A DNA stretch of 62,941 bases, the filler included, from Globobulimina sp. (lineage: Eukaryota), in assembly GCA_003354225.1 (NCBI GenBank). It is 21 parts of 21 records of this genome, joined end to end, with 100 filler letters (N's around TTAATTAATTAA, not from the genome) between each part and the next. Parts side by side here need not be neighbours in the genome. Positions count along the whole stretch, not along the records: positions 36,034 to 38,934 come from PIVH01004430.1; 20 more parts are not named here. One strand, written 5' to 3'. The notes beneath the pieces are model-generated. The model had not been told where the DNA came from and ran no database searches. It saw only the letters and a program-made list of their open reading frames with translations. Within the stretch, counting starts at the first letter, position 1. The number at the start of each line of letters is the position of its first letter. The translations under genes were made by a program, and so were the position numbers. This document shows, piece by piece, positions 1,092 through 62,639 of this stretch.

Positions 1092-2608
1092 TTAATTTGC
1101 ACGAATCACCAACCAAAATTCAACAATTGAAGGTTTCTTTACATATTTTTCTGAAATGGTATAGCCTGCGTCACCATATATTTGTTGTAACGTTTTTCCT
1201 GCAGAGGACCATAATGAAATTAACCAATTGCCACCTCGTGCTGTGACAGCTATAATAGTCACTACTTTCAATCCATGTCTTTTCATCAAAGATAACAATT
1301 TAAACAATGAAATAGAATATGATTTATCTGCGATGGCATGTTTCCAGGTTGTTCTGATAATAACAGTCTTTACATTTTCCAATACCTTTAACAATCGAGA
1401 ATTAAATAAATTACTACAATCATCCGCACATCTCACCGTTTCATTTGCTGCCTCTTTCTCTTCCATTTCATTCAATATTACATTCCTCATATTTTCATTA
1501 GCTCGTATTAACAGTGATAAATCTAATACAATTTCTTCTTTCTTCAACACAAATGATTTAAATGTGTTGTATACATACTCAGGAAAACGGCTTTCATTTG
1601 GTTCATGTAACACATTTGTCATTACATTATTTATTATTGTTATATCAGTTTCCTTTATTTCTATCTCCCTCAACGATATCGATGCAGTAATCATAGAATC
1701 AAATGCATGGAACGCGTGAAAAAATTCTCTGAAATTTTGATTTGTTTCTATCAATCTCACTCCCTCCAACGCCAAAGGATGACTTCCACCAAAAAACAAT
1801 CTAAACGAATATAAAATGAGTTAAGGTTATAATTATCAAAATAAAGCAGCAGACATTACCTTTCTTCTTCACCTTTAAACTTTGAGATCCATTCACAGTT
1901 AAACGCAGATAAATTATTGTGTCGTTTTGAGTTATTCAATTGCATAATCATACCCTTTTTCTCATCCGTGAACCGCATTGCTACCTCAATGTGCATGCTA
2001 GTTGAAGTTGGTGAGCATAATGTTATGCAGAATTGCGGAACAGTTAAAACAGCAGACATTCCACAATAAAATGGACCCGACAAACATCGATAACACCGCA
2101 CAGACTCTGAATCATAAATACCTTCGCTGGTATTACCATAAATTTCGACACTTTCTTTTAAATATCTACTCAACCAATAATATTCGCTGTTTCTCTCTTT
2201 AACGCTTTGTATTGCTTCCAATGGGTAATTGCGTCTGAATGTGGCTGAGAAATCTGCTGCCAACGCAGTGAAATCAGTATACAGCACTATGGATAACAAA
2301 TGATTAAACGTAATTGGTTCTTTTGCAGTAAGGTCATAACGAAATATTGCAGGTCCGCACCAATCGATATTTGGCAACACTGTTTTAGCATATTCTGACT
2401 TCATATACTTTCGTACTTTGAATGAGACGCTTTTATAATAGATCTGATCAAAATGTTGATATTCAAAAAGTTCCTCTTTAAATGATTGGTATTTTTGGGT
2501 TACGCACAAATTTGAAATTGTGTCACCATCACGACCGTGTTCTGTATTTGAGCTAGAAAATGGCCAATAATCAAATTCTAAACCAACGCTAAAACTCTTT
2601 GACATCAC
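1092..2608 (-). CDS. ADP-ribosyltransferase (R-S-E/ART)-like domain protein, at least two exons
   Basis: A GT-AG intron at 1801-1859 joins ORFs 1856-2608 and 1092-1799 in frame (EEER|LFFGG). Motifs: IVLYTD, FYCG, PTSTS, ISKFKGEEER. The 5' end is uncertain. Confidence 0.65.
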
Positions 2609-2905
2609 TGTTGTTGTTTTTGTTTATTATTTTAGAGTTATACATAGAATAAATTTGCTGTTTAGATAGCAAATTTGCGCTGTATGTATTACAAAAACAA
2701 TCATTACTATCCATCAAAAATAGTGAATTTGAAGGCTTATTTGCATTATTTTTACATTGTAATATGATTAAATCCATATTGATATTGGGAGACGGTTTAT
2801 AATTATTTAATCGATCACCATTTACATTTATATACTCATTGTACGCAATATTATGTTCCCCGAAATAATGAACTTTGATTTTATTTGTTCGTTTATTTAT
2901 TTTTA

Positions 2906-3005
2906 NNNNNNNNNNNNNNNNNNNNNNNNNNNNNNNNNNNNNNNNNNNNTTAATTAATTAANNNNNNNNNNNNNNNNNNNNNNNNNNNNNNNNNNNNNNN
3001 NNNNN
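2906..3005. other. Artificial contig linker N44-TTAATTAATTAA-N44 (first of 20, recurring about every 3 kb)
   Basis: The identical 100-nt spacer, with stops in all six frames, recurs at 5911, 8915, 11919, 14922, 17924, 20926, 23928, 26930, 29932, 32933, 35934, 38935, 41936, 44937, 47938, 50939, 53940, 56941 and 59942. Contig lengths fall from 2905 to 2900. Confidence 0.99.
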
Positions 3006-3701
3006 GCATTTGATCCAGCAATTTGCAATCAAACCTACAATCCAACCAATGAAACTCATAAATGTTCTTCTTCTCCAAATGGAGTTCATGTTTTTGTGGA
3101 GTGTAATAATACGTTATTGTGGAGTGTAATAAGTTGAGTGCATTTGATTCATTTAATTTTATAATAAATATACAAATACACGTACCTATAAATAAGAACA
3201 GGGTGGATCGGATTTGATATTATATTTACGTCAATGGTACAATGCATATTATCCACAACATACCAACACATTGGAAAAAAAGGACGTGTGACATTGCTAT
3301 TTGGCATTATATCCATGATATTTTGCATAATCATATTTCTATCTGAAATTAATTATGTGTTCTTTTTTTTTCTTTTCTTTTATTGCTCATTTTCATTGTC
3401 GTTCATACGTTTTTATTGTTTTAGTAACTTTGCGGATGACTAGTCATAGACGACAATTTTTTACCTTTATTGGCTAGTTTGCGAGCCTTTATCACAGATT
3501 GATTTCTGATCGATGATTTCATTGATACAAACATGTACAGATTTGGTTGAAAATTAAAAGTCCCACCAAAAATGGTATTATTTATACAGGAAATGATGTT
3601 GTTGTACATTTAATGAGTTACGGCGTGTTGTGTGTGCATAAAGTTAATTAATTAAATAAATAGATATACAAATGTCTTTTTTTACACATAACAGATTGTT
3701 G

Positions 3702-5405
3702 TTATCTCCATCCAAGTACAGCAATATTATCATTATGATTAATTGAAGAATAACAATGTTTTGTGATAATATCATTATATTTAAATCTAAATTGTCGATT
3801 ATTTTCAGCGTACATTTGTACATTACATCCGTTTAAAATTTCTGCCATTTGTGTAATTTCCATTTGATTACATTTTTTAATTATGGTACGAATAAATTCT
3901 TCATCTTCAAATACATAATTTGCCATTGACCAAAACATTTTAATCATAAAATCGTCCAAATGGAACTGCATCAAATACCAAAATAAAGTCTTGGTCAATT
4001 CAATCATAACTTCCTTATTCGTATTCTTTGAGTCTTTATCATTTAATCGAAAATACCATCTTTTTTTAAGTTCATTTATATTATAATTTGGTAAAGATTT
4101 TTTGAAAAATAATAGAGTCAATTCCTTGATATTTGCGTTCATTTTGTCAATGAATTGTATATAATTTGTGGTGCCATCTTTCATTCTTTGTATACAATTT
4201 ACAAAATCTACATAGCTGTAAACCATTGTAATATACGGTAAGTAATCAAAAAATTTATGATGTACAATGTCTTGATTTTGCGCGATTTTCGCTCTTAATT
4301 TTGATAAAAACTCATTCACTTTCTTCAAAATGCTATAAATGTTCCAAAAATATGTTTTTCCTTTGATATAATGGATCCAATATATTTGTAATGAGGTTCG
4401 TAAACCAATCAATTCCTCCTCATATTCTCCCCCTTTCTCCGCTGCATTTTCTACATTACATTCATTCAAATGACCAATATATTCATCCAAAACATGAATC
4501 AATTTATCCACTCCAATTTTGCTGGATAACGGATGTAATTTTCTTTGTAAATTGGACGCAAACTCTGATAATAATTTTAATTTCAATTTTTTCCATTTTT
4601 TTAATAATTCATGTGTGGATTCACAAATATTGCATTGACTGTAACATTTTTCTATATCCGCTGGAGACACATCATAAACCAAGAAATAATCCGCAGCATA
4701 CACAAATTGTTCCAAATCTTGAATAGATTTTGTTGCGATTTTTGGTTGGTTGACATCATCATTTTTCTGCTCAGACACATTGCAATATTTTAATAATAAT
4801 TTAAAATGTTTCATGCCAAATGTTGTGACTTTAAAATCAAATTTATAATTTTCTAAATCATCGGAGTCATTGTCGGATTTTGATGGCTTATTTTTATTTC
4901 TTTCTCCGACCTTTCCATGCGATTTTAATTTATGATCACTAATATCCATGGATGGTCGCGCCAATTTCCTGTGAAAATATCCAATATTTCGTAATAAAGT
5001 CATATCAATGTTTTGTGTGCTGCCGTTGAGTGTGATTGCTGCGGTAAGGGCTGTTTGTTGGTTGTCGTTCTTTTTAGTTATTGCTGTTAATATTTGTGAC
5101 TGTGTTTTCTTTTTTCGTGTCGGCGTTTTACCGCTTTTAAGTGATCTCGACGGTGTCTTGATTAATTTTGAATCGTTATTCATAGATTTAACTAAATCAC
5201 TTACACTATTTCTCGATCGCGGAGATGATGCAGATTGAGAATGCATGTTTTCTTTATTCATCTCGGCAGCATTTGTTTTTTGAGATTGTAAGAAATCTTG
5301 AGTTTGCATTTGTGTTTCAAATTGTTCCTCCATTTCAACCCTTCTTTTTTTTGTTGACGGTTGATCTGTTTTTGAACTACTTCCTGGTGACAGGCGTTTA
5401 GTCAT
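3702..5405 (-). CDS. Hypothetical nuclear protein (basic/Ser-rich N-terminus with KKRR NLS-like motif, helical C-terminus)
   Basis: Long intronless ORF. Likely start is MTKRLSPG at 5405. Confidence 0.75.
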   Translation of the reverse strand: MTKRLSPGSSSKTDQPSTKKRRVEMEEQFETQMQTQDFLQSQKTNAAEMNKENMHSQSASSPRSRNSVSDLVKSMNNDSKLIKTPSRSLKSGKTPTRKKKTQSQILTAITKKNDNQQTALTAAITLNGSTQNIDMTLLRNIGYFHRKLARPSMDISDHKLKSHGKVGERNKNKPSKSDNDSDDLENYKFDFKVTTFGMKHFKLLLKYCNVSEQKNDDVNQPKIATKSIQDLEQFVYAADYFLVYDVSPADIEKCYSQCNICESTHELLKKWKKLKLKLLSEFASNLQRKLHPLSSKIGVDKLIHVLDEYIGHLNECNVENAAEKGGEYEEELIGLRTSLQIYWIHYIKGKTYFWNIYSILKKVNEFLSKLRAKIAQNQDIVHHKFFDYLPYITMVYSYVDFVNCIQRMKDGTTNYIQFIDKMNANIKELTLLFFKKSLPNYNINELKKRWYFRLNDKDSKNTNKEVMIELTKTLFWYLMQFHLDDFMIKMFWSMANYVFEDEEFIRTIIKKCNQMEITQMAEILNGCNVQMYAENNRQFRFKYNDIITKHCYSSINHNDNIAVLGWR

Positions 5406-6010
5406 TAAGCTAGACAAGCAATTAAATGCGCAAAACTGTCGGAAAACTAAGAATAGAGCTAAAAACCGAGACTGTTTGCGTAGTCGTTCTTTATCGCAGA
5501 TCATAAAAATAAAGTTACAATTTTGTACATTGAGCAAATGTAGACATCATCGTACACACTAATATGAACAGTATATGACACACACACCGCATAATGACGT
5601 CCGATACTGTCATCTATCTTGGAGTTACCTTTACAAATTCGTTTATTTGTGCATTACTCATATAATCCATTTCATGTTCCAATTTTAAATGTGATTCATT
5701 CATATCACTTACAATGGTCGTCATTAACGCTTCAACTGAACTTATTTGATGATGCAAATTTGCTTCAAATGAAGGCAAAGGAGTACATATATCACCACCA
5801 CCCTCAATGCCACAATCCTCTTCGTACATATATGCGCTCTGCTTTCTATACATAGAGGCATCATTAGAATGAGAATCACCATGATGAGAATCATCCTCAT
5901 TATTTGTATTNNNNNNNNNNNNNNNNNNNNNNNNNNNNNNNNNNNNNNNNNNNNTTAATTAATTAANNNNNNNNNNNNNNNNNNNNNNNNNNNNNNNNNN
6001 NNNNNNNNNN

Positions 6011-6630
6011 CTGCTGTTGTTACTGCCGCCTCTGCCACGGCCACGACCTGATCCGCGACCTCTGCCACGGCCACGGCCACGGCCTCTGCCTCTGCCGCGA
6101 CCACGAAATGTTCCACGACCTCGCCCTCGAATGCCACTTCTTTGCGCAGCTTGATTATGAATTTGGTTCCTAGCTTGAAAAGCACTTTGTGGATTGTGCG
6201 ACATTGATGGTACTGTGTTTGGATTGAAATGTAGACCGGTCGCAGTAGGTTGGTTTGGTGCAACCATCATGATTTGTGCTTGATTTTGGGCCATGCCGGC
6301 CATCATTATCTGTTGTTGTTGCTGTTGTTGTTGTCTTTGTGCTTGAATATAGGCTGCATTTTGTCGCATGGCTAACGAATTTAAACCACTATATACCGGT
6401 AGGTGTGGGTTGGTGGTGGTGGCCGGGTTATATGTATGAAAGGTTGGGTTGACTTGTTGGCGGTATCTATTCATTGATGATTGTAAGTATCCGCCACCAA
6501 CGGAGGTTAATGGGATGGATGTTGATGTTGTTTGTTGTGCTGTTGTCGCTCTGCTTGATGTTGTTGGCTGAACAACATATCTGTGTGGATAGGGTAATGT
6601 ATTTGGTTGTTGATAACCACCGTAAGACAT
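6011..6630 (-). CDS. Low-complexity Q-rich / RG-repeat protein, 3' partial (likely RNA-binding)
   Basis: MSYGGYQQ start, a polyQ tract and an (RG)n tract running into the contig end. Confidence 0.75.
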
Positions 6631-6890
6631 TTTTGTTGGTGAATTCTGACGTGTTATATTAACAGTTCGGAACTTCAAACTTTTTTGTTTTATCGAGATT
6701 CCACACAATCAATCTCAAACCAACGCCATAACAACCTCTCCTAAACTCTTTGCAATTAATCATGTTAACAATGATATTTCAATCATGAATATGTAACCAA
6801 TCAACAAAAAAAATAGGTTGTTTATAATGCAAGAATATTAATTAAAATCATACATTGCGACCCACACAAAAAAAAAACGAAAATCTATAT

Positions 6891-8811
6891 TTATATTTTT
6901 TCATATTGTTGCTTTAAGTTTGAATATGACGATCCACGCCGTAATATTTCTAAACTTATGCCTCGTTTCCTATAATCAATTAATTCGAGATCACCGCCAA
7001 CCTCATTTAATTTTTGAATCATAGTTATTTTGTTTCCCTTTTGTGATTTTGTGAAGCGAATATAACTTTGACTCATTAATAATAATATTTCAATACAGGC
7101 ACAATCCATAACAGTGAACATAGTAAAATTTAATTCATTTTCTTCTTTCTCCACATTAATACACACATTCTCCGGGTGTTTATCCATATTTATTTTATCA
7201 ATTATCGCATTAAATGATTTTGTAATTTTATTTCTTTGAATACACGAAATATTGATTTCTAACACACTTTCTCTTTTAATATATTTTAAATATAATTCAT
7301 ATAACCTATCAAGAAACGTTTCTTTTTTATTTAATAATTGTGATTTGGGCAAGTTTGGAGGTAATTCAATGCGCGAAAATATGGACCCATTTGCATTGAA
7401 TATATAGGATGCAATGCCTGTATTTGTTCGTGTGTCGTTGCGAAAAATACTTGACTTTCTACGTACTTTTTCAATGTGACAATCCACGGTAATATATTCT
7501 TCATCATTTATTGTTTTATTCTCAATATCATCAATTATTGCGTTACTTTGTCTGCGTTTTGCTATTTTTGATTTTGGTTTGGGTATTTTTAATAAATGAT
7601 GGCATTTTAATTGAAATTCGGATTTTATTTGAATATATTCATAAATAAATAATAAGTTCTCAGTGCTAAACTCGTTCACCTAAAATCACATCAACATCAA
7701 CAAAAACACATTAATACAAAACACATGTTTCTGTTGTACATAAATTTCAGAAACATCAACAAATATTATATTTGTTGGTGTTTGCCACAATTATGTACCT
7801 TAAAAACGTTAAAAAAATCAAAAACTAAACTAAATGCATCATGAATCCCTTAAATGTCTGTTCATCGCTCAACACATAAATCATAGTTTTAACACCATGA
7901 CTATGATTAATATGAATATGTTCAGCTTCAGGTATTGGTGTCTGTGCTGCTGCCAATTGTTGAAAGTATAACTTATTATTAGATTTATATTGACTGACCG
8001 GCACAAATATGGATATAAATGACATTAAAAATAATACAATACTTCCCACAAATATACGAATTAACCATTGTATGCGTGATGATATGTCACTAAATAAAAT
8101 ATCAGTGATAAAAACAGCAATATACAGCAACATAACAGCAAATAATATAAAACATTGATATCCAATCTCTTTTTTAATACCAAATATGTCATCGCAAACT
8201 TTTAATTTATAATATAAAATAAACGATGGTATCAATAAAATTAATGATGCAAAAACTAAACAATTATTTGAGATATGTGCGAAATATCGAACTTCAATGT
8301 ATATTTCAACGGTAATGTAGAGAATAAATGGTAAAATTAAGATTTTTAACAAACAATTAAAATTTCCAAATGTATTTTTATGTGAAATATACCATGATTT
8401 ATAATTACAATTAATCTCCTTTTTCCATGTTGATTTGGCCAAAGATTCATGATATCCAATGCTATAAAATAATAACCATATTTTCATAAAAAATAATACA
8501 AAAACACCCCATACAAATATTCCATCACATACATATATTAACCATTGATAATCATTAAATAAACTTATCCGAAATACAGTTACTAAACAAACAAAGAAGC
8601 GTTCAAACATAATTCCCGTAATCGACAATCCGTTTTTCAAAAATACTAATTTAGATTTTCTGTGTTTCATTATTTCTGTGTCTTTTAATTGAATAAATTT
8701 ATACAGGTAACATATTAAAATAGGCACAAATATGAAACAACCAATGCATATAACAATAACACCACAAATATCTATTAAGTCAACATTAAAATTAATAAAA
8801 TCAATCTTCAT
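6891..8811 (-). CDS. 7TM-RGS protein (seven-TM region plus regulator of G-protein signalling domain)
   Basis: Hydrophobic exon 7831-8811, intron 7680-7830, and RGS hallmarks FKGFMMHL|VNEFSTENLLF, LYLKYI..S.LEINIS and SYIRF. Confidence 0.85.
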
Positions 8812-9014
8812 TAGGGTTTTTGCTTTTAGTTCATTTCTTCAATCAACATTTAAATTTTCTATTTTTACTAACATTTGAGTGCTTCACTTTGTAACTAAGT
8901 ATGCTGACCATGGGNNNNNNNNNNNNNNNNNNNNNNNNNNNNNNNNNNNNNNNNNNNNTTAATTAATTAANNNNNNNNNNNNNNNNNNNNNNNNNNNNNN
9001 NNNNNNNNNNNNNN

Positions 9015-9525
9015 ATACAGATTTTTTTTTTGGAGAAACTGAGTTTGGAACTGATTTTTTAGTGCGATTATCATCTAAATCATCATCCAAATTCATGGTA
9101 AATTTTGATTTTTTTTTCTCATTTTTAATTGCTTTTTGATCAATGATATAATCGCTGATTTTCACAGTGGAATCACTAATATTTACAAATGATTTTGGCT
9201 TTACATTGTATGCTTTTTCTAACTCACGAATTAATGAAATGGTTGCTGTGGCTGCTAATAATTCATCTAATTCATTTTGTAACTCCTCATCATTGGGACT
9301 GTCATCAATTTCTTCTTCTAAATCTTCAATTTGTTCGTTGATGGCTACCTTAGCCACTAATGCTTTTTGGGACTCTTTGAATGATGGATATACCGAATTC
9401 GTTTTTGATTTTATAGATTTATACGTTGCTCGCGCTTCTTCGATGGTTACCGACTCGATTGCTTCTTGAGACAGGATAATGAATGTCTTCTCTGTCAAGC
9501 CACGTCTTCTAACTCTTCTTGGCAT
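9015..9525 (-). CDS. Hypothetical protein, 3' partial
   Basis: ORF of about 170 codons from MPRRVRRR to the contig edge, with acidic helical segments. Confidence 0.55.
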
Positions 9526-20600: not shown

Positions 20601-20682
20601 TCACCGCCGTAGGATTCGAACCTACATCCATTTGGTTTGCAATCCATATAAACCAATGCTCTGCCAATTGAGCTAGGCGACC
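20601..20682 (-). tRNA. tRNA-like gene with expanded 15-nt anticodon loop (possible short intron; isotype uncertain)
   Basis: GGTCGCC-TA-GCTC-AATTGGCA-GAGC-A-TTGGT-(15 nt)-ACCAA-ATGGAT-GTAGG-TTCGAAT-CCTAC-GGCGGTG-A. A and B boxes are good; the top of the acceptor stem is weak. Confidence 0.7.
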
Positions 20683-33032: not shown

Positions 33033-34533
33033 GCAAAGGACCCGCAATAGTAGCGGAACGCGTGGCGAGACTTACGGTCACCGTTGTGTTAGTGCTAAAG
33101 AAACTTTCAGCGGCGCGCCCGGCTTGCGTCAGGGCTTCGTCGGCTAAACGTCTGTAAATGCGTAACAATTCAGATTTGATGCTATCAGCGTTCGCCATAG
33201 AGCGGCCCGGAATCAAATCGCCTTCCGTTAAACGACTTTGAGCATATACACTTTTCAGCGTGTTATAAATAATCTCACGACAAGCCGAACCAGTATCAAC
33301 ATAGTTTAAATATTTGAAACTGTCGTTAGCATTACCCGCGGCGTCTGTCTGCCATGTGGTAACAAAAGGCCCGGTTATCATTTCGTTTCCGGAGGTGTTA
33401 ACGCCCCAGTAAGAAACCCCGCCGTCCTCTAACGTTTGCTGTTCGTTGAAAGTAAATTGATCGGTCGCAATAGTGACCGGAGTCGACGCCAGAGGCGTAT
33501 TAAAATACGGAAGCGACGCCAAAGCAGGGCCGCCGCGAGAATCAAGCGGGCCGGAAGTGGTCACAATGAAATCAGAAATCGGAGCGCCCGGGGTTAGCCG
33601 TCTCGCTCTTGTGCCTTGGAAATATGCCATTGTCCAGTCTGCGGGCTGTGGGATAATTGGGGTCGTGTCTCGATCATTGCCGCCCATAACTAGGGTCTGA
33701 GTGTTAAGCAATGCGGAGGCAGCGATCAGAGTCGTGGAAGAATCCGACCGTCCCATGAAGCCCACGCCGTCAAAAACGCCGCTCGCTACGTTGAAACGAG
33801 AATCAAGTTCGTCACCTAATAGGCTGAACGTAGAACTTAAATACTCCGGCCAGTTTATGCCCGTGTACCGAACGCCAGATATAGCATTGAATATAGCCGC
33901 CGTGATAGTGGTACCGAAAACTCCGCCGCTAAATTGTGTCGGGGTAATTACCAGATCCTCAACAGTAGCCGCGCCGGTCCCGCCATCGACTAAAATAGAG
34001 TTAAGGTTAGGAAATTCGTTACTATCAACCGCCGTTAATGTGACGGTACTAGTCGCGACTCCGTTAGTCCATGGCTTAGTCCCTGCGAAAGCAGTAAGGG
34101 CGGCGTCGATAGCCGTCGCGACATCGGTCGTCGCGTCCCCCTCTTCGAAATTAACGGTTATATTAAATTGTTCGCCGTCTAAGATGGTCAAAACGAAAGA
34201 ACCATCAGCCGCAGCCGGGCCACCTGACACGACATAGGTCGCCGTCGCCTGAGTGCCTGCCGTTGGCGCGATTGATATAACGTCAAGAGGGCTATAGCCG
34301 CCATTAGCCAAGCGGAAATATTGGATCCGGAAATATAATTCACCAGTACCAAAAAGGGCTTGAAGCTGCGCGTTTGTTAATAAATTGACGTTTTGATTAA
34401 GCGCACCATCTACCGCGGCACCGCCGGAGGCAGTCGCCCCGATGATTAAATCGCGACGGTCGTTAAATGCGTCTACAACGGCAGCCGGTAAAAGCTGGAC
34501 CCCGATGCTTGGTTGTGATATTGGGCTACCCAT
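33033..34533 (-). CDS. Phage contractile tail sheath protein (Mu gpL-like), 3' partial
   Basis: GC-rich contig. The sheath-type layout includes LFGTGEL, the inserted ATATY...ATAIDAA domain, SLPYFNTPL, EQQTLEDGGVS, FVTTW..D..GN..DSFKYLNYVDT and YAQSRL. Confidence 0.85.
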
Positions 34534-34535
34534 GA

Positions 34536-34802
34536 TTACTCACCTCTACTCGTTGACTTAGAAACTTTAGGCTTCGCGGCTTTCACTTTCGTTTTCGCTT
34601 TGGCCTTAGGCTTGATTATCTCCATTACGCCGCCTTTTTTGGCAGAGCGTAACACCTTATTCCATTCGGGCGTCATTGCTCGCCCCTTCTCGTCCGTAAC
34701 AACTTTTTTAGTTCCACCGGGGCCGACCCCATATATTGGCACCGTCGAATTGTTGCGAACAGTTACAAAACTTTTGTTTTCCATCTCTTTACTAGAGAAC
34801 AT
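34536..34802 (-). CDS. Small basic tail-region protein (position of Mu gp38/DUF2635)
   Basis: 88 aa, tightly packed between terminator and sheath genes. TDEKG...W..L motif and Lys-rich tail. Confidence 0.55.
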   Translation of the reverse strand: MFSSKEMENKSFVTVRNNSTVPIYGVGPGGTKKVVTDEKGRAMTPEWNKVLRSAKKGGVMEIIKPKAKAKTKVKAAKPKVSKSTSRGE

Positions 34803-34803
34803 G

Positions 34804-35919
34804 TTATACCGCCTCCGCGTCTAAGTCTACATTAACAGATAATTGCGCCATATCGTCGGCGAATAAATCCCATGTTGAGGAGATATCCCGGAACGCCACC
34901 GTCGGCGCCTGCGCGAAACCATCCTCGAAAGTTATAACCGTCGGAACCTGCCAGTCGTAAACGTGCGCGTAATATGCGCTATTCGTGGCATTTATCCCGG
35001 GGCCGTGTCCTACTGTGACCGTGACATATTGCTGCGCCGTGGTCGGGTCCTCAAATCGGAACCCATAAAGCACATTAAGCAATGCTTGATAAATAGTATT
35101 ATACGCCTCTGACTGAGCATTAAAACCCGCCGTGTCGCCTGCCGCTGTCGGGATAAAGCACGCGACAGTAAAATTTTGCAAAATCGTCTGTTTCTGTAGG
35201 TCCTGCGCGGAGAACGCGGCGACGCCATCGTTTTTCGTGTGCCTATCCTTTGACGCGATTGCGTCGGACATTATCACAAATAAGTAAGGGTCTGTCCCTT
35301 CTTGCTTGGCGTATACCGCCTCGGCTCTCGCATAATCGGCCGCGCCTACCACTCGAACCCCTGTGAGGATTTCAAGCTGCAGAATGTTACCCGTCGGCAA
35401 ACTTGGGATCGAGGCTGGGACGTCAATCGTAAAATTATCAACGCCCGGAACCGTGGCGACTGTTTGCAGTCCTCCGAGCCCGGCGCTACGTTCTTCTATC
35501 AATAGCCCGTTAGTTATTACCGGGGGGACAGTCTCGCCGGCTGGCGTGGCTATCTCGAAAAAGTTCCGATTAGGGATATTATCAATTTGATGTTCTCCGT
35601 CCCATGGCGCGCCAATACCTGAAAGGGTCACCGTCTGGGGGTCGTCCGGGAGTGTCGGCGCGACTAGGTCGTGCTCGTCTACTGTCCCGAATCGAGTCGT
35701 CGTATCTTCGTCAAAATCTACGCTGTCCAAAGCGTTCTCATACAGGCCGTTGACGACGATAATCGTCTGGCCCACGATCAAGCCATGGCCGACCGCATTA
35801 ATCGAAACGACGCCGCCCGCAACGCTTGCGGAGGACGTAGTTATAGTGTCGTGAAACTTATCAGTAACCGCCGGGAGGTAAGTCCTCAAATGTGTGACTA
35901 TGTCGCGAGGTGAAATCAT
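34804..35919 (-). CDS. Phage tail terminator/completion protein with internal beta-domain insertion
   Basis: SD-like AAGGA upstream. N-terminal IVTHLRTYLP; C-terminal PYLFVIM...YAHVYDWQ...VAFRDI. Lies just upstream of the sheath gene. Confidence 0.6.
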   Translation of the reverse strand: MISPRDIVTHLRTYLPAVTDKFHDTITTSSASVAGGVVSINAVGHGLIVGQTIIVVNGLYENALDSVDFDEDTTTRFGTVDEHDLVAPTLPDDPQTVTLSGIGAPWDGEHQIDNIPNRNFFEIATPAGETVPPVITNGLLIEERSAGLGGLQTVATVPGVDNFTIDVPASIPSLPTGNILQLEILTGVRVVGAADYARAEAVYAKQEGTDPYLFVIMSDAIASKDRHTKNDGVAAFSAQDLQKQTILQNFTVACFIPTAAGDTAGFNAQSEAYNTIYQALLNVLYGFRFEDPTTAQQYVTVTVGHGPGINATNSAYYAHVYDWQVPTVITFEDGFAQAPTVAFRDISSTWDLFADDMAQLSVNVDLDAEAV

Positions 35920-36033
35920 TAAAATATCCTTTCNNNNNNNNNNNNNNNNNNNNNNNNNNNNNNNNNNNNNNNNNNNNTTAATTAATTAANNNNNNNNNNN
36001 NNNNNNNNNNNNNNNNNNNNNNNNNNNNNNNNN

Positions 36034-36231
36034 CACCGTATCATCCATTGCCTCACACTGCAAACCGCACACCGTATCATCCATTGCCTCACACTGCAAA
36101 CCGCGCACCGTATCATCCATTGCCTCACACTGCAAACCGCACACCGCATCATCCATTGCCTCACACTGCAAACTGTGCACCGCATCATCCATTGCCTCAC
36201 ACTGCAAACTGCGCAACTTATTATTCATGGC
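36034..36231 (+). repeat. Left arm: 5 x 36-bp tandem repeat plus 18-bp inner cap
   Basis: Unit caccgtatcatccattgcctcacactgcaaaccgca repeated over 36034-36213, followed by caacttattattcatggc. Confidence 0.97.
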
Positions 36232-36309
36232 ATCGCACTGGAACTTATGATCGATATACTGACAAACTATTTATTTTAATTAAATAAGTTTAAATTAACA
36301 AAATAAAAA

Positions 36310-36984
36310 TTAATAATCACTGTTATCACTTTCCATGTTATTGTGATTGTGATTATGTGCATTTGAATAATTTGGTTCATCTTGATCCATTTCTTCCATT
36401 TCCGTTTCATTTTCACTATGATTTCCATCTAAATGTAATAATCGTGTGTCCACCAATTTTGATTTCATTTCCAAATACTCTGATTTTGATATTTTATTAT
36501 TTTTTAATTTATTGTCTAAAATTTTAATTTCAGCTTTAATATCAAAAATAACATTAACAGCTTTGTCAGCTTTTTCTTTTTTTGATCTTATTTTATTGAC
36601 AACTTCATCATTTAACAATGAAATCTTGTCATTTACCTCGTTTTTTGCAATATTTGTGCCTTCTATATATGATCCACAATAATGGACATTCTTGCTCGTT
36701 TTACAACCTTCTGCTTCGCGCTCTGTCGGACTAATAAAAACTAAACCACCTCCACCAATTGTCTCACATATGGATACAGCCTTATTTCTTAGTCCTGTCA
36801 CCATTCCAGCAATGATTGATGTTCTTTTTGAATTATATTCTGGATCGGATTTTGGCGGCAATTGCTTCAGTGACCTATATGAGTGCATATAGATCGTTTT
36901 AAACCTATATGAGTGACTATCAATAATGATACATACTCTGGCTGTCGCGGTGGTTTTTGGCATACTGTTACTTGTGTGAAACAT
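36310..36984 (-). CDS. Orphan protein (possible C-terminal part of the 37454 gene)
   Basis: 224-aa ORF overlapping the upstream ORF by 118 nt in the -1 frame. Coiled-coil and acidic tail. Confidence 0.65.
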   Translation of the reverse strand: MFHTSNSMPKTTATARVCIIIDSHSYRFKTIYMHSYRSLKQLPPKSDPEYNSKRTSIIAGMVTGLRNKAVSICETIGGGGLVFISPTEREAEGCKTSKNVHYCGSYIEGTNIAKNEVNDKISLLNDEVVNKIRSKKEKADKAVNVIFDIKAEIKILDNKLKNNKISKSEYLEMKSKLVDTRLLHLDGNHSENETEMEEMDQDEPNYSNAHNHNHNNMESDNSDY

Positions 36985-37454
36985 TTATTTTCCACAATAG
37001 ATATATCATTATATTCATTAACATGTTCCACAATAACTTTATTTAATTTTTCCGATAATTTATCTCCATTGGCCACAATTGAACGTCTTAATTTTGGATA
37101 AGTTATTGATGCGTTCATTGTTTGCGATACAATATATACTCTCAATAAATGTGATTCAGCGCCTTCATCTGCTTCTTGTTTCTTTTCTTCATTCTCAATT
37201 TGTATATCATTTTCATTATTTTGATTACTATTATTTTCATTGTTATTTTCATCTTCTGATACTATCCAATCTTCCGCTTCAATTTTAGTAAATATTTCTT
37301 TGCCTGCTTTTGAATATAAAGCTTTAATTAATGTGCCTTTGGATTTTGACCCTAATGTGATATTATTATTCTTAGCTAATATCTTAATTTCGCGTAAGGT
37401 GTAGTTTTCCCATATTATAGACAAATTGTCACTTTCACCATTTTCATTATTCAT
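36867..37454 (-). CDS. Orphan protein with HeH/Rho-N/SAP-like nucleic-acid-binding motif
   Basis: Likely start MNNENG at 37454. YTLREIKILAKNNNI...SKGTLIKAL fits the helix-extension-helix pattern. Confidence 0.6.
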   Translation of the reverse strand: MNNENGESDNLSIIWENYTLREIKILAKNNNITLGSKSKGTLIKALYSKAGKEIFTKIEAEDWIVSEDENNNENNSNQNNENDIQIENEEKKQEADEGAESHLLRVYIVSQTMNASITYPKLRRSIVANGDKLSEKLNKVIVEHVNEYNDISIVENKCFTQVTVCQKPPRQPEYVSLLIVTHIGLKRSICTHIGH

Positions 37455-37754
37455 TATGTGTGCTAAGCAAAGAAAAGTTACACTACAACCCACACCCCTG
37501 GTTACATCAACGATATATTCCAAAAGATAACTACCCCCGCTTTCCAAATCCAGAAACTGTTTGTCTTGGGTTTGTTCTGTGTTTGTTATAACTTTGTCTT
37601 GGGTTTGCAAATCCAGCGCAAAGTCAGAACAAATTTATAATCGAATTTTCGGTATACAAAGGGGGTGAGGTTACCTTTTAGAATATGTCGTTCAAACTTT
37701 GCATTGATCAATGAAATTCTTTATCTCTCTAATTAAGCGGCGACGCGATTATGA

Positions 37755-37802
37755 AAAGCGTCAGCTATAGAAAGTGTTGGCTATACAAAGCGTCAGCTGC
37801 AA
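37755..37802. promoter_or_regulatory. Three tandem 16-bp iteron-like repeats in the divergent intergenic region
   Basis: aaagcgtcagctatag / aaagtgttggctatac / aaagcgtcagctgcaa. Confidence 0.55.
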
Positions 37803-37936
37803 AAATGTGTACAGTTTGTATTCCCTTTGCAAACCCAATGCAAATATAATATACATAAATCATACACAAAATATCTACCCGGTGGGGAGGGGGTTATATA
37901 TTGAAACTCATCGTTAAACAACATTTTTGAAATAAC

Positions 37937-38650
37937 ATGACACAGGAGTCATTCAATGATTTCCGTAGCCGTAGTGCAAGATACGGTAGAGTAAGAAAAC
38001 GATATTTGCAACGATCTGATGATGACTCAGAAGAACAAAATGAATTTAAAACCATCAATTTCGGAATATACAAACAAGGCGACAATTATGAACTGAGGAT
38101 AAATTCATTGAAAAAACAAAAAATGCGGAAAAACAAATGGGAGACACGGAGATATGAATTGGGTCAAAAAACAGGATATGTTTTTTGTAAAAAAAGAGCT
38201 CGTTGGAGAACGTTAGCGACAAAAAAATCACACTCAGACAATCCAATCATTACAGTTTATAATATTCAAATCCAATCTCGATATAGCGTAAAATTTGCGA
38301 AATCTATTGTAACTAAAAATAAGTATCGATCAAATGATAGAAATCATTGTTGTGTGAATTTGCCAGTAACAAAAGTGGATGATCAAGGTGATATTGGTAA
38401 ATGTGAGATATTTCTATCAATTATGGAGAATTTCATTAAAAATGATGTAGAAAAATCAATAGATACACACACGTTAATTAAAAAAACGTCAAATGAAATA
38501 AAAAAAGTATTCAACTGCAGACGATTCCCAATCAAATTTGTTGAAAACTCTGCAAATATGAGAGGGGCAAAAAAACAAACAAAAAATAATAAAAAAGAGA
38601 ATATATTGTTACATTTTGATGAGAGTCCAGAAGAATTAATTGTTGAATGA
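37937..38650 (+). CDS. Basic orphan protein
   Basis: 237-aa K/R-rich ORF whose stop lies about 60 nt before the right repeat arm. Confidence 0.75.
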   Translation: MTQESFNDFRSRSARYGRVRKRYLQRSDDDSEEQNEFKTINFGIYKQGDNYELRINSLKKQKMRKNKWETRRYELGQKTGYVFCKKRARWRTLATKKSHSDNPIITVYNIQIQSRYSVKFAKSIVTKNKYRSNDRNHCCVNLPVTKVDDQGDIGKCEIFLSIMENFIKNDVEKSIDTHTLIKKTSNEIKKVFNCRRFPIKFVENSANMRGAKKQTKNNKKENILLHFDESPEELIVE

Positions 38651-38711
38651 ATGACAGTGACTTATTGTGTTTAACTTTTATTTTTCCTATTTAATGATTG
38701 CAACATCCATG

Positions 38712-38934
38712 GCCATGAATAATAAGATGCGCAGTTTGCAGTAAGTGGCTATGGAGGATACAGTGCACAGTTTGCAGTGTGAGGCAATGGATGATACGGT
38801 GTGCGGTTTGCAGTGTGAGGCAATGGATGATGCGGTGCGCGGTTTGCAGTGTGAGGCAATGGATGATACGGTGCGCGGTTAGCAGTGTGAGGCAATGGAT
38901 GATACGGTGCGCAGTTAGCAGTGTGAGGCAATGG
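38712..38934 (-). repeat. Right arm: 18-bp cap plus about 5.7 x 36-bp repeat, inverted
   Basis: gccatgaataataagatg, then units such as cgcggtttgcagtgtgaggcaatggatgatacggtg to the contig end. The innermost unit is degenerate. Confidence 0.97.
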
Positions 38935-52052: not shown

Positions 52053-53570
52053 TCATCTCCACGAATCTATCATATATTGATCATTGCCATGCATATCCAC
52101 ACAAACCCCATCCGCGTCAATGGTATCACAATATGCAAAACACTCACTCGCTGTAATAAACTCATAACCAGCAGCCACAAACATATCAATAATATCATCC
52201 AAAATCGCATAAACATTCCTATCATGCATCAATATATTCACACTATCCCCTCCATACAAACTCAAATCAATATAACTCGAAATTTGTGCAAAGTCATTCG
52301 GCGTTCTCCAATCATTGGAATCTATATTCCATAACGAAAGAATATATCCCAGCGCCACAATATACTCCGCCTGAGCTTTGCTTAACGACCCATACGGTGG
52401 CCGGAACACAGTCGGTTCCGCGCCGCCACATCTCACAATTTCTTCCCGCGTTCTCTCTAATTCCTCAAATATCGCTGCATTGCTTAGCGCTGCATTAGCA
52501 AAGTCCGGATGTGACCAGGAATGGCTCTGAATTTCCATGCCGGCATCGTTTAGGGCTTGAAACAGTGGACAGCGCTGATCCAAACTCCATTGGTCGCCGC
52601 CCCACGCAGCAGGGGACACATAAAAGGTGGCTACGATGCCACGCGCAGTCAACTTGTCGATGATTGTTTGGGTTTCGTCACCAACGCCATTGGCGGGTCC
52701 GTCGTCAAACGATAATGACACATATTTGCCGCTGCCACAGCCGCTGATGCTCGATATACGGTAATCGCCTACGTGATTCATGGGGCGGTCACGGGTGGGC
52801 CCATTGGTGGGAGAGGCTGTTGACTGTGTGGGCTGTGCTGTGATGGGTGGTGAGGTTGGCTGTGCTGTGATGGGTGGCAGGGTCGGCATAGTTGGGGCAA
52901 GAGTAGGTGCGGTGGATGGGTCAGTTGGGGCAGCGGTTGGTGTGCCCATTGTGCAGGGCGTTGTGGACAGGTCAGCCCAACAGTTTATGTCTGCTGGATC
53001 AATGGTACAATCTGATGGGAAATTGCAACATTGTCCACATTTTGCATATGCCTCACTCCAACTTGACCCACAACGAGATGTACAGATTGGTGTTGCTGTT
53101 GTCGGTGCTGTAGGCGTTGCCGTGGTAGGATCAGATGTTGTGGGTGTACCTGTGGTGGGTGATGCTGTGGTTGGTGTTTTCGTAGTTGGTGCTTTCGTAG
53201 TAGGTGCTGTAGGCATTGCTGTGGTTGGGTGCAATGTTGTGGGTGGTGATGTGGTTGGCATTGCTGTGGTTGGTGTAGCTGTGGTTGGGTCAGACGTTGT
53301 GGGTGATGTTGTGGTTGGATTAGATGTGGTGGGTGTGGTTGTTGGTGCGTTTGATCCTTCGCATGGTGTTTCACTTAAACCAGTCCAGCAACCCGTATCA
53401 TTCGGATCATCTGTACAATGCCTTGAACGTTTACAACATTGCCCACATTTTGCATTCGCATCACTCCAACTTGATCCACAACGGTTTGGTTGCTTACGTG
53501 GACAATGGGCAGTTTTACCAAAATATATAAGAAATAATAATAATAACGCAATTGATCCGCGTAAATTCAT
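52053..53570 (-). CDS. Secreted CE4 polysaccharide (chitin) deacetylase with two Cys-rich modules and PT linkers
   Basis: Signal peptide; RCGSSWS.A.AKCGQCC occurs twice; NodB motifs SFDDGP, HSWSHP, FRPPYG, DSNDW and LMHD. Confidence 0.92.
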   Translation of the reverse strand: MNLRGSIALLLLFLIYFGKTAHCPRKQPNRCGSSWSDANAKCGQCCKRSRHCTDDPNDTGCWTGLSETPCEGSNAPTTTPTTSNPTTTSPTTSDPTTATPTTAMPTTSPPTTLHPTTAMPTAPTTKAPTTKTPTTASPTTGTPTTSDPTTATPTAPTTATPICTSRCGSSWSEAYAKCGQCCNFPSDCTIDPADINCWADLSTTPCTMGTPTAAPTDPSTAPTLAPTMPTLPPITAQPTSPPITAQPTQSTASPTNGPTRDRPMNHVGDYRISSISGCGSGKYVSLSFDDGPANGVGDETQTIIDKLTARGIVATFYVSPAAWGGDQWSLDQRCPLFQALNDAGMEIQSHSWSHPDFANAALSNAAIFEELERTREEIVRCGGAEPTVFRPPYGSLSKAQAEYIVALGYILSLWNIDSNDWRTPNDFAQISSYIDLSLYGGDSVNILMHDRNVYAILDDIIDMFVAAGYEFITASECFAYCDTIDADGVCVDMHGNDQYMIDSWR

Positions 53571-61046: not shown

Positions 61047-62639
61047 ATGTCCGAATTAGATGTAATTCCACCAATATTTAAATGGGCTGAATCATTATCA
61101 TCAAATTTAGAAAAACTACAAGCTGACATTCAAAACAATGCAGAAAGATTGCAAGAATTTCATGTACAGCAAGATGCAAATACAAATCAAGCAGATATCG
61201 ATACATTAGTAATATCACCCAAATCAACAACAAATTTATCGCCAAAAACAGCAATTTTATCACCATTAAATATAAGCCCACAACATACGACAATAACATT
61301 TGAATCAAATCAAAACCAAAATGAAAACGCAAATAACAATGATAATAAAAATATTAATGAGGAGAAAATGTTTAAAGACCTACCGCAAAATATACATAAT
61401 ACAGCATGTAAAGTTACAAGCGATGGGACGGAAATTATTACCAATGTCGCCAAAAAAATCTGGGGTAAAAATATTCCACAAACCTTCTTAACCGCATTAG
61501 ATATAGAAGTTGAAATAAGTGATGAAGATGGAAAAGATGAAGAAAGTGAGGACTTTTCCTCTGTGTATACAACGTATAGATTACAAATGCATTCACGGCA
61601 AAAATCCAGAACAAAAGAACCGAAACGAAGGTCGATTATATTGCCAGCTTTAGAAGTGACGAAAGAAAAAATACCAAACAATTTGACAGAAAATAATTTA
61701 GGTTTTCCAAACAAAACAAATCCAGATATTTTAATACCGAAAATTATACAAACAACACAATTCGAAAACAATTTGCAAAAGAATATATTTACAAATTGTG
61801 TCATGTCGCATTACAGTGTCGATATAATAGCCGATGCATTTTGGTGGTTTTTAATAAATGAATGGAAGATTAATGAAAATGATAAATACAAAGATACGCA
61901 AAGTATTGTTTTTAAACGAATGTGTAATAATTATGTAAAATTATTTGGGCTGTTTTCCAAAGAAAAGGATAATTTGAAAGATGTAATATTTGATAATTAT
62001 TATGATATATTAAGTCAATCTATTTTTACGTGTTTTATTCAACAATATCCGAAATCAAAACATCTATTTACAGATAATATTAAATTGAAAATATTAAATA
62101 TTACATCAAAATGGACAATGGGATGTATACAATCTTCGTTATCACACAAACATTGGTTAGTGGATAATAATAATCGTCGCAATAATAGGCACGAATGTGT
62201 TGTGAGTAATAATATCCCGACGGCAAATACTAATTTTAGTGTCATCAAAAAAGATGTTACCTTTAAACACAGCGAATTTATACAATATTATTTGAAGCAT
62301 GAATCAAAGATCGAAGTAGGCGACAAAACCACAATCAAAATGAATATGACATTTTGCATACCGAACAATAAATTGTTACCATTTGACAAACTAAAAAACG
62401 AGTCGGCAAAATGTGGCCAACAAACAGAAAATATACGAAAGAAATTTCTTAATTCACAAAAAGAATTAAGTAAAATGATAAAAAAGGATAAAAATGCATT
62501 AAAAGAAAATGAAACTCAGTTACAGCAACAATTGACAATTGCAAAAAAAAATAAAAAGCAATTTATTAAAAATGTTTTAAAACAACTTCTTCCAAATCAT
62601 ATCAATGGTGATGACAGCGAACAAGTTTGTATCATCTAG
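61047..62639 (+). CDS. FAM227-like (FWWh domain) protein
   Basis: IIADAFWWF...VFKRMCNNYVKLF...KDVIFDNYYDILSQSIFTCF...YP.S. Confidence 0.75.
   Translation: MSELDVIPPIFKWAESLSSNLEKLQADIQNNAERLQEFHVQQDANTNQADIDTLVISPKSTTNLSPKTAILSPLNISPQHTTITFESNQNQNENANNNDNKNINEEKMFKDLPQNIHNTACKVTSDGTEIITNVAKKIWGKNIPQTFLTALDIEVEISDEDGKDEESEDFSSVYTTYRLQMHSRQKSRTKEPKRRSIILPALEVTKEKIPNNLTENNLGFPNKTNPDILIPKIIQTTQFENNLQKNIFTNCVMSHYSVDIIADAFWWFLINEWKINENDKYKDTQSIVFKRMCNNYVKLFGLFSKEKDNLKDVIFDNYYDILSQSIFTCFIQQYPKSKHLFTDNIKLKILNITSKWTMGCIQSSLSHKHWLVDNNNRRNNRHECVVSNNIPTANTNFSVIKKDVTFKHSEFIQYYLKHESKIEVGDKTTIKMNMTFCIPNNKLLPFDKLKNESAKCGQQTENIRKKFLNSQKELSKMIKKDKNALKENETQLQQQLTIAKKNKKQFIKNVLKQLLPNHINGDDSEQVCII

Follow-up and report, generated by a model that had tools for sequence, protein, structure and literature searches.

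A divergent gene pair between inverted 36-bp repeat arrays in a Globobulimina-like foraminiferan, best explained as a single-copy nuclear locus

A contig from a Globobulimina-like foraminiferan carries two genes that lie back to back and run outward from its centre, between mirror-image arrays of a 36-bp repeat. What kind of DNA is organized in this way? The explanation that we favour, with about even confidence, is a single-copy nuclear gene pair in which a minisatellite specific to the locus, duplicated in inverted orientation, forms the 3' flanks and the contig ends are assembly breaks; we infer that the locus is chromosomal. The window (the whole stretch of DNA that was analysed, 62,941 nucleotides) consists of 21 contigs of 2900-2905 bp each with N/TTAATTAATTAA spacers between them, and the contig in question is a whole one of 2901 bp, at positions 36034-38934 (Table 1). 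The original prediction was of a small linear extrachromosomal or foldback-like element. Nothing positive was found for it, set against a depth equal to that of the host, arms that are 94% alike, a MITE at the centre and host-like codons. None of the papers listed by literature searches describes such a structure in foraminifera.

Table 1. Features of the contig, in coordinates of the window.
Feature	Position	Strand	Remarks
Left arm, five canonical 36-bp units	36034..36213	.	Consensus CACCGTATCATCCATTGCCTCACACTGCAAACCGCG; contig start is the first base of unit 1
Left cap	36214..36231	.	First half of the degenerate innermost unit, CAACTTATTATTCATGGC; 17/18 identical to right cap
Left gene, exon 2 (stop codon included)	36310..36874	-	End of globular part, coiled-coil-like stretch, acidic/His-Asn tail
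Spliceosomal-type intron, 62 nt	36875..36936	-	GTATGT...CATATAG on minus strand
Left gene, exon 1 (from first ATG)	36937..37454	-	SAP-like motif by eye only, acidic Asn/Glu linker, start of globular part
MITE-like dispersed repeat, 182 bp	37510..37691	.	Terminal inverted repeats of about 30 nt; TCA direct duplication at 37507-37509 and 37692-37694
Three direct copies of a spaced 16-nt motif, intergenic	37750..37805	.	
Probable fragment of a second, related MITE	37826..37905 (approximate limits)	.	Inverted match to MITE core; TIR-like end GGGGGTTATATATTGAAACTCATCGT
Right gene, 237 codons + stop	37937..38650	+	Small family known from foraminifera; motifs IQSRYSVxFxKS, RNH
Right cap	38712..38729	.	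Reverse complement CATCTTATTATTCATGGC
Degenerate unit 5, right arm	38730..38765	.	27/36 identical to its left-arm partner
Right arm, four canonical units + 25 nt of another unit	38766..38934	.	Contig end lies inside the latter

Tandem Repeats Finder (TRF) returned two period-36 arrays, at 36034-36240 and 38728-38934, each with 5.8 copies, 91% matches and a score of 316. The right arm comprises 0.7 of a unit and four canonical units, one degenerate unit and the cap, and the contig stops within an array at both ends, as the original prediction had noted. The arms are complementary at 94% over 198 nt, with an in-register match of 186/198, and unit variants follow one another in the same order in both (units 3, 4 and 5 end in CCGCA, CTGTG and CTGCG). 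Units are more uniform outward and degenerate inward. The arrays give way on the inner side to an 18-nt half-unit cap, CA[A/T]CTTATTATTCATGGC, that matches at 17 of 18 positions between arms; inward of it the similarity breaks off abruptly and the sequences are unrelated. The inverted, TIR-like arrays and their cap are thus as real as first described, and the stop codons of the two diverging genes do lie close to the caps (78 nt for the left gene, 61 nt for the right). The cap read outward as a start codon (GCC ATG AAT AAT AAG) was rejected on account of in-frame stops in the right arm.

The repeat appears to be confined to this contig within the reach of the search, which was the 20 other contigs of the window and public collections. 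A 24-nt core of the unit, with up to three mismatches, gave nine matches, five on the plus strand at the left end and four on the minus strand at the right end, and none in the other 20 contigs (none expected from 100 shuffles). A 22-nt core had no exact match in metagenome_contigs or viral_contigs, and no end repeat of any kind is shared among the other 20 contigs.

Depth and junctions were taken from assembled contigs of public runs. In X1, the best DNA-like run, the unique body of the contig has a depth of 5.3-5.8, and X1 contigs from other loci that touch only the MITE have 5.9-8.7; body depth therefore equals that of other loci and there is no sign of amplification. The original prediction had allowed that a single locus at single-copy coverage, or an MDA inversion chimera, would speak against it: the depth is indeed single-copy-like, and the chimera is largely refuted. 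Contigs of X1 and X5, independent runs from different studies, extend from array into unique body at both junctions with zero or one mismatch, and so the junctions are not the artefact of one assembly. Two bins in the arrays correspond in X1 to about 8-18 unit-equivalents, compared with 10.7 assembled. Contigs aligned past the ends of this stretch number one in X1 and one in X5 only, none spans it whole, and none reaches sequence on the far side of the arrays. Short-read assemblies of foraminifera are very fragmented, one published draft having an N50 of 1,797 (PMC6783311); given such fragmentation, a contig with repeats at both of its ends is to be expected.

The central region holds a MITE-like repeat with every feature of that class: it is short and non-coding, with terminal inverted repeats, a 3-bp target-site duplication and high copy number. 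In X1 its depth ranges over 1344-9447, where the flanks have about 5, and contigs leave it by many different loose ends. Copies with 80-84% identity occur in L001 and L007, in other gene contexts. The copies inspected were two complete ones and that of L001, in which the left end has decayed; both complete copies have the 3-bp duplication (TCA/TCA in the window, TTA/TTA in L007). We take the 182-bp repeat to be of PIF/Harbinger (Tourist) type, a superfamily link that comes from the length of the target duplication only. It resembles Tourist and PIF/Harbinger MITEs in being short, non-coding, very high in copy number and near genes, with terminal inverted repeats of about 30 nt; it differs in the TCA target seen in the window, where TWA is usual for these elements, and in that no autonomous partner was identified. 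The presence of a high-copy MITE with a 3-bp duplication at the centre indicates that the DNA of this contig has resided in the host nuclear genome. A fragment of a second, related MITE is probable nearby, where the bin 37762-37851 has a depth of 38 in X1 against about 4, with loose ends at 37839 and 37845. Among metagenome contigs a 19-mer of the central repeat was met at 11 loci, nine of them chance matches. Rfam gave nothing credible in the centre (best E 0.12, far below the gathering score) and, in the window as a whole, only two tRNAs, both in a different contig; folded as DNA, the centre was unremarkable (z = -1.95).

The left gene was at first considered intronless, which does not hold. 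It consists of two ORFs in different frames, which become a single ORF of 360 codons on removal of a 62-nt GT..AG intron, and a 1098-nt X5 contig skips exactly these 62 nt (ends CT..AC on the plus strand). A 20-nt intron proposed by eye also restores the frame, and is superseded by the joint in the X5 contig. A similar intron, GTATGC...TATAG, interrupts an HD-domain gene of L007. The left protein was searched as separate ORFs or exons, with its central domain split by the intron. Two word-indexed searches among lengths of 94-392 residues yielded 114 and 78 candidates, none at E<=0.01; PDB sequences gave nothing significant, and Pfam and PHROGs only chance-level matches to the exons. The HeH domain of the original prediction found no backing: there was no match to Pfam SAP (PF02037) or Rho_N (PF07498) at E<=1 or even at E<=10, and the protein atlas offered leads only, at 0.79 (a SAP cluster) and 0.78, where the bar of the tool is 0.9. 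The protein may still have a distant HeH fold.

The right gene, thought to be an orphan, has relatives. Its protein is 99% identical to EukProt EP00483 Globobulimina turgida P002695, and a phmmer search of 1.84 billion representatives found six proteins at E<=0.001, one of them a near-identical copy. The other five (E from 6e-21 to 4.7e-4, 28-37% identity) include two from Bolivina argentea, and paralogues and orthologues are ordinary transcripts in that other foraminiferal genus. Similarity within the family is significant over the full length, with 17-18 invariant columns and a third motif, D..M..I.KD..S, beside the two in Table 1. Variants in other runs keep the frame (21 gap letters, a multiple of three), and six of 11 substitutions outside the gap-rich stretch are synonymous. 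AlphaFold predictions rose from a pLDDT of 33.6 with the single sequence to 68 with eight aligned sequences, with a core at about residues 40-195 mostly at 85-94. The model had no Foldseek match at E<=0.001 among 226 from the PDB or 500 from BFVD. Neither the family profile against PDB sequences nor the members against Pfam gave anything, the protein itself had no significant match in Pfam, PHROGs or PDB sequences and no usable one in the protein atlas, and of 47 pattern matches in viral contigs none was confirmed. In line with the original prediction, no transposase, integrase, RT or polymerase family was recognized on the contig in searches of Pfam, PHROGs and PDB sequences.

The codon use of both genes is host-like. 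Cosine similarity to other AT-rich contigs is 0.88-0.93, compared with 0.53-0.54 to a GC-rich contig; among the comparison ORFs themselves it is 0.91-0.97 for seven of eight and 0.71 for the eighth. A host origin is also supported by the near-identical G. turgida protein and by intron ends like those of L007 (GTATGT..ATAG).

Transcription was approached through three runs, X5, X6 and X7; none of the runs listed as containing the sequence is recorded as RNA. X5 appears to be cDNA, as suggested by the missing intron and the absence of intergenic cover, and X6 and X7 are guessed to be RNA; parts left uncovered in these runs were not used as evidence. If X5 is read in this way, both genes are expressed. 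One X5 contig runs from the spliced left gene to 36182, 59 nt into the array, and another from the right gene to 38792, 65 nt into the array. Array depth in X5 is 1267-1690 against 7-23 for the genes, an excess beyond what the number of units alone would give. Contigs of X6 and X7 both end at 38698, 13 nt short of the cap, and neither run has array depth at >=90% likeness, a hint either of some transcripts that terminate short of the array or of other copies without one.

Under the favoured explanation of a single-copy nuclear locus, two unrelated protein-coding genes stand head to head and read outward from about 480 bp of intergenic DNA, into which a host MITE has since inserted. Behind each gene lie an AT-rich trailer of 60-80 nt and a short minisatellite, the cap with about 5-10 of the 36-bp units, which is common to both genes and present as an inverted duplicate. 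Arms that are alike at 94%, but not identical, are what an inverted duplication of some age in a chromosome should show. With diverging genes and inverted arrays, read-through transcripts of both genes would carry the repeat in the same sense; the arrays may thus serve the two genes as a common 3'-flank module, with a part in termination, 3'-end handling or co-regulation. The contig would break off where an assembly of about 5-fold short reads could not pass the 36-bp repeat. Counter to this nuclear-locus explanation, the in-register arms and conserved cap resemble a functional terminal inverted repeat. The excess array depth in X5, the X6 and X7 contigs that end short of the cap, and the scarcity of contigs over the ends also count against it.

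A foldback-type DNA transposon, or an immobile relic of one, is an explanation that we regard as unlikely. Here the arrays would form the tandem-repeat part of long terminal inverted repeats, to which a transposase encoded elsewhere would bind in trans. The gene pair would make up the middle domain or be cargo, and the outermost domain, with the target-site duplication, would lie beyond the contig ends. Long terminal inverted repeats with internal tandem repeats are present (arms of at least 198 nt, 36-bp units), as is an inner domain, the cap, common to both arms. The plan thereby matches the flanking, tandem-repeat, inner and middle domains of Tetris as outlined by PMC4079207, and is shared in the same outline with Drosophila FB and Galileo, which have long inverted tandem-repeat arms, an inner domain and a middle domain (PMC4079207). 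Structurally complete foldback copies can be few, three in the genome treated in that account (PMC4079207), and the host has active-looking derivatives of DNA transposons, namely the MITE with its 3-bp duplication. The contig is unlike these transposons in that it ends inside the arrays, with no outer flanking domain or target-site duplication in view, and in a middle that is formed by two conserved, host-like genes, apparently expressed and also found in other samples, in place of a transposase or non-coding DNA. Its depth is that of a single copy, searches of Pfam and PHROGs yielded no transposase-like protein, and the core of the unit was found nowhere else in the sequences searched. Traces of mobility or of multiple copies were seen neither in X1 depth nor in the 20 other contigs and two public collections.

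More doubtful still is a free linear molecule of about 3-3.5 kb, either a mini-replicon or a gene-sized nuclear chromosome. The 36-bp arrays would be telomere-like ends, and at least one of the two proteins would help to maintain the molecule, perhaps by attaching to the arrays. In a fuller and equally doubtful version, the contig is nearly the whole molecule, the arrays are unconventional telomeres, the genes are transcribed to or through the ends, and the endoreplicated nucleus keeps the molecule at about one copy for each genome equivalent. It agrees with such a molecule that the contig ends in arrays on both sides, that units are uniform outward and degenerate inward, as at chromosome ends, and that transcripts enter the arrays. 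The number of array units in X1 is small and close to that assembled, and therefore the true ends could be within a few units of the contig ends. Foraminiferal nuclei undergo strong endoreplication and genome remodelling, as described in PMC11606643, which leaves room for unusual chromosome forms.

Several of the findings above weigh against a free molecule. Depth shows no amplification, and the MITE, the host-type intron and the host-type codon use indicate ordinary nuclear DNA. In another genus, paralogues and orthologues of the right gene are ordinary transcripts. Pfam and PHROGs revealed no replication family, whether polymerase, terminal protein, helicase or other. The terminal inverted repeats of linear plasmids and viruses are kept identical through replication, whereas the arms are not. 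Linear plasmids, invertrons and transpovirons are small, have inverted terminal sequences and carry genes that point endward, in all of which the contig is alike. It is unlike them in its spliceosomal intron and host-equal copy number as well as its diverged arms; it had no match in the plasmid collection or among viral contigs, and no protein-primed DNA polymerase or terminal protein was found in the three ORFs or exons by Pfam, PHROGs and PDB sequence searches. The gene-sized macronuclear chromosomes of spirotrich ciliates are similar in their 2-3 kb size, their one or two genes and their inverted end repeats. These nanochromosomes all share the same short simple telomere and are highly amplified; the contig has a 36-bp unit and a depth that is not raised, and none of the 20 other contigs ends in the 36-bp repeat or in any shared one.

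Could the arrays themselves be coding? In this case, which we consider very improbable, they would be the 3' ends of two inverted gene copies that encode a 12-residue repeat (frame HRIIHCLTLQTA) and read inward to a stop just past the cap, the contig being the spacer between two inverted paralogues. In both arms the frame stays open through all units, the degenerate unit and the cap; the left arm reaches a stop 45-50 nt further inward than the cap, and the right arm has one directly behind the cap unit. Of the five positions at which units vary, three (6, 33 and 36) are synonymous third codon positions, and array depth in X5 is far above that of both genes. The unit is open in five of its six frames, however, and therefore openness means little. 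For any single frame, chance alone would put at least three of five sites on third positions in about a fifth of cases, and the X5 contigs connect the arrays to known gene bodies. An assembly artefact, whether by inversion chimera or by a wrong join at a common satellite, could be imagined from a very fragmented source assembly that includes bacterial or phage passengers, but it is already largely refuted and has next to no probability, with near-perfect junctions reproduced by two runs, arms that differ at 12/198 positions and unrelated sequences inside the caps.

Foraminiferal nuclear genomes are almost unexplored. A true free linear mini-chromosome would add a new form of genome to Rhizaria and a new type of chromosome end. 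If the contig is a chromosomal gene pair within an inverted minisatellite, it is a modest curiosity, a foldback-like frame that would put the same repeated 3' tail on both mRNAs. Two by-products come with it: an abundant MITE family with 3-bp target duplications in the host genome, and a small conserved family of foraminiferal proteins, the core of which is predicted with confidence and matches neither a solved structure nor a predicted viral one.

The studied contig (36034-38934) is one entire contig of 2901 bp and 34% G+C; the 62,941-base window comprises 21 separate contigs of 2900-2905 bp each, divided by spacers of N and TTAATTAATTAA. The mirror-image 36-bp arrays described at both of its ends in the original prediction are real, as judged by Tandem Repeats Finder, core counts and a 198-nt alignment of the arms. 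Against a chance expectation of none, the unit's 24-nt core occurs nine times: its five left-end copies read on the plus strand, its four right-end copies on the minus strand. It was found in none of the other 20 contigs of the window, and exact matching of a 22-nt core against metagenome and viral collections found none. The arms (198 nt, 94% complementary) align in register, unit by unit, with 186/198 positions identical. They have a common order of unit variants, in which units 3, 4 and 5, counted from the outside inward, end CCGCA, CTGTG and CTGCG, and both close inward with the half-unit CA[A/T]CTTATTATTCATGGC. This is the common inner cap noticed previously (17/18 identical), and inward of it arm similarity ends abruptly. 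Units are uniform toward the outside and decayed toward the inside, and one degenerate unit of the right arm is 27/36 identical to its left-arm counterpart. The in-register match, common variant order and half-unit together indicate that the arms arose by inverted duplication of a single, particular array and are not two independent satellite blocks.

Features of the contig, in window coordinates
Feature	Coordinates	Strand	Description	Basis
Left array	36034-36240		period 36, 5.8 copies, score 316	Tandem Repeats Finder
Left-gene intron	36875-36936	-	62 nt, GTATGT...CATATAG	X5 contig omits it
MITE	37510-37691		182 bp, inverted ends ~30 nt	alignment and inspection
Second, partial MITE copy (probable)	~37826-37905			
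Right gene	37937-38650	+	237 residues	
Right array	38728-38934		period 36, 5.8 copies, score 316	Tandem Repeats Finder

The two genes between the arrays had been described as intronless orphans, and each term fails for one of them. The two minus-strand ORFs, 36867-37610 and 36310-36984, do not share a frame. A 1098-nt contig of the public run X5 matches 36182-36872 and 36935-37341 with 0 mismatches and omits 62 nt ending CT..AC on the plus strand, i.e., GT..AG on the gene strand. With the intron removed the ORFs fuse into a single 360-codon frame, while the unspliced frame stops after 195 codons; the left gene is thus intron-containing. In L007, a metagenome locus with a relative of the contig's central MITE, an HD-domain gene (1701-3435, minus strand; SAMHD1-like by eye) has a 94-nt intron, GTATGC...TATAG, with ends like those of the left gene's, a local example of host splice signals. 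The left protein has no relative in word-indexed searches and no family match in Pfam or PHROGs, with its separate ORFs or exons as queries. The HeH domain proposed for it is unconfirmed: relaxing the cut-off to E ≤ 10 still brought up neither SAP nor Rho_N, and the sole HeH-type lead, a SAP cluster in the protein atlas, scored 0.79, under the tool's own bar.

Over 221 residues the right protein shares 99% identity with Globobulimina turgida P002695 (EukProt EP00483), and on this ground the host is taken to be a Globobulimina-like foraminiferan. The protein has no match in Pfam, PHROGs or PDB sequences. When phmmer was run exhaustively against 1.84 billion representatives, six proteins passed E ≤ 0.001. 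Besides the near-identical G. turgida entry, these are five divergent relatives, with E from 6e-21 to 4.7e-4 and identities of 28-37%. Bolivina argentea accounts for two of the five, both in EukProt, and the others lie on NCBI, ENA, Logan or JGI contigs of 697-3451 nt, which places the right gene in a small family of at least two foraminiferal genera. The family alignment has 17-18 invariant columns, among them IQSRYSVxFxKS and RNH. AlphaFold gave a pLDDT of 33.6 from the single sequence and a mean of 68 with eight aligned sequences, the core (~residues 40-195) being mostly at 85-94; among the 226 PDB and 500 BFVD matches of this model in Foldseek, none reached E ≤ 0.001. At 38366 the window has G (Val144), and all covering runs (X1, X5 and X6) have C (Leu), as does the EukProt protein; the contig thus either represents a minority variant or differs at this site through assembly or consensus.

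The left and right proteins are unrelated to each other, and their genes stop short of the arms as predicted, 78 nt (left) and 61 nt (right) from the caps. Right-gene variants in contigs of X6 and X7 (both guessed to be RNA runs) stay in frame, with 21 gap letters, a multiple of three, and beyond the gap-rich stretch 6/11 substitutions are synonymous; in left-gene exon 2, variants in other runs are synonymous at 3/9. The kept frame and these shares point to moderate constraint on the right gene and weak constraint on the left.

The remaining contigs of the window are for the most part AT-rich and have long standard-code ORFs, and codon use in both genes is like that of these ORFs and unlike that of the GC-rich contig. 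The latter (33033-35933; 51% G+C), in which one of two long ORFs weakly matches Phage_tail_terminator (E 2.7e-4, under the Pfam cut-off), is probably a bacterial or prophage/phage-derived passenger in the eukaryotic assembly. A Pfam scan covered ten ORFs from the other contigs, and five had no match at all; those at 61047-62639 and 52053-53570 carry, respectively, a eukaryotic FWWh domain (2.3e-27) and a polysaccharide deacetylase domain (1.7e-22), the second adjoining tandem repeats (53104-53342) that are themselves coding. The window's only Rfam matches at gathering score are a pair of tRNA genes on a single 2.9-kb contig (18174-18240, plus strand; 20601-20682, minus strand).

Contigs from four public runs were aligned to 36142-38826 for depth and loose ends. 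In the DNA-like run X1, 37492-37671 has a depth of 1344-9447 against ~5 on either side, such that the MITE stands at ~250-1,700 times its flanks; depth here is 134-492 in X5, 61-192 in X6 and 296-321 in X7, and dozens of differing loose ends flank the block on both sides. A 19-mer of the block occurs in 11 metagenome loci. Nine are chance matches, and two (L001 and L007) hold true relatives of 157-164 nt at 80-84% identity. The L007 copy (~1421-1646) separates a convergent gene pair at its 3' ends, and the L001 copy (~356-507) has divergent ORFs on its two sides. The target duplication is TCA/TCA in the window (37507-37509, 37692-37694) and TTA/TTA in L007. High depth, copies elsewhere and target duplication identify the central repeat as a dispersed MITE, which rules it out as the contig's own promoter or origin. 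The family is abundant in this genome and makes 3-bp target duplications; its presence in the runs guessed to be RNA places it in or near many transcripts, and the insertion with target duplication shows that the contig's DNA shared the nuclear environment in which the family spread. A spaced 16-nt motif, TATGAAAAGCGTCAGC with variants, is present in three direct copies at 37750-37805, in the interval from the MITE to the right gene, and may be a promoter or binding element.

Unique body depth in X1 is 5.3-5.8, like that of other-locus contigs touching only the MITE (5.9 and 8.7), so the body is not amplified relative to them. Two array bins reach 38.4 and 86.8; with unique contigs subtracted and the remainder spread over canonical positions, the arrays amount to ~8-18 unit-equivalents against 10.7 assembled. 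Arrays in the X1 sample are therefore at most about twice as long as assembled, and the 36-mer is no general satellite. We give roughly even chances to the contig being a single-copy chromosomal gene pair whose 3' flanks are the inverted duplicate of a locus-specific minisatellite. Its ends would then be breaks of a short-read assembly at ~5-fold depth; a published foraminiferal draft of similar kind has an N50 of 1,797 (PMC6783311), which makes contigs ending in repeats the rule.

A foldback-type transposon or its relic is unlikely. With TIRs of tandem repeats, an inner domain and a middle domain, the layout agrees with that described for Tetris and Galileo (PMC4079207), but neither copy number nor cargo fits, a transposase is lacking, and an outer domain and target duplication are unseen. 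The short arrays and the contig ends agree with a free linear mini-replicon, yet arms only 94% alike, depth at host level, the MITE and the intron, an end repeat shared by 0/20 other contigs and no replication protein found make this still less probable. That the arrays encode an inward-reading 12-residue repeat, HRIIHCLTLQTA, is improbable: both arms keep this frame open, with 3/5 variable sites synonymous, but 5/6 frames are open in any case. An assembly artefact is very improbable and a chimera, named previously (as an inversion chimera) among possible refutations, is removed as an explanation, since both array/unique-DNA junctions recur, with 0 or 1 mismatch, in contigs of two independent runs from different studies.

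Transcripts bear on what the arrays might do. X5 appears to be cDNA, because the intron is at zero depth, the intergenic region and 5' parts of both genes are bare and the exons are identical to the window. Its array depth (1267-1690 against 7-23 in the genes) would then be explained by the collapse of units, together with 3' bias or read-through. Leaving the gene bodies, X5 contigs enter the arrays for 59 and 65 nt. Speaking against transcripts that carry the arrays, the X6 and X7 contigs, from runs with no array depth at ≥90% likeness, both end at 38698, 13 nt short of the right cap, a weak hint of an RNA end. The literature searched holds no account of such a structure in foraminifera; the inverted arms built of tandem repeats are real and unusual, yet within known kinds. 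As the genes are divergent and the arrays inverted, both RNAs would bear the repeat in the same sense. For the single-copy gene pair, the arrays would probably serve each gene from its 3' flank, in termination or end formation or by regulating the two jointly, the least secure step of this reading.
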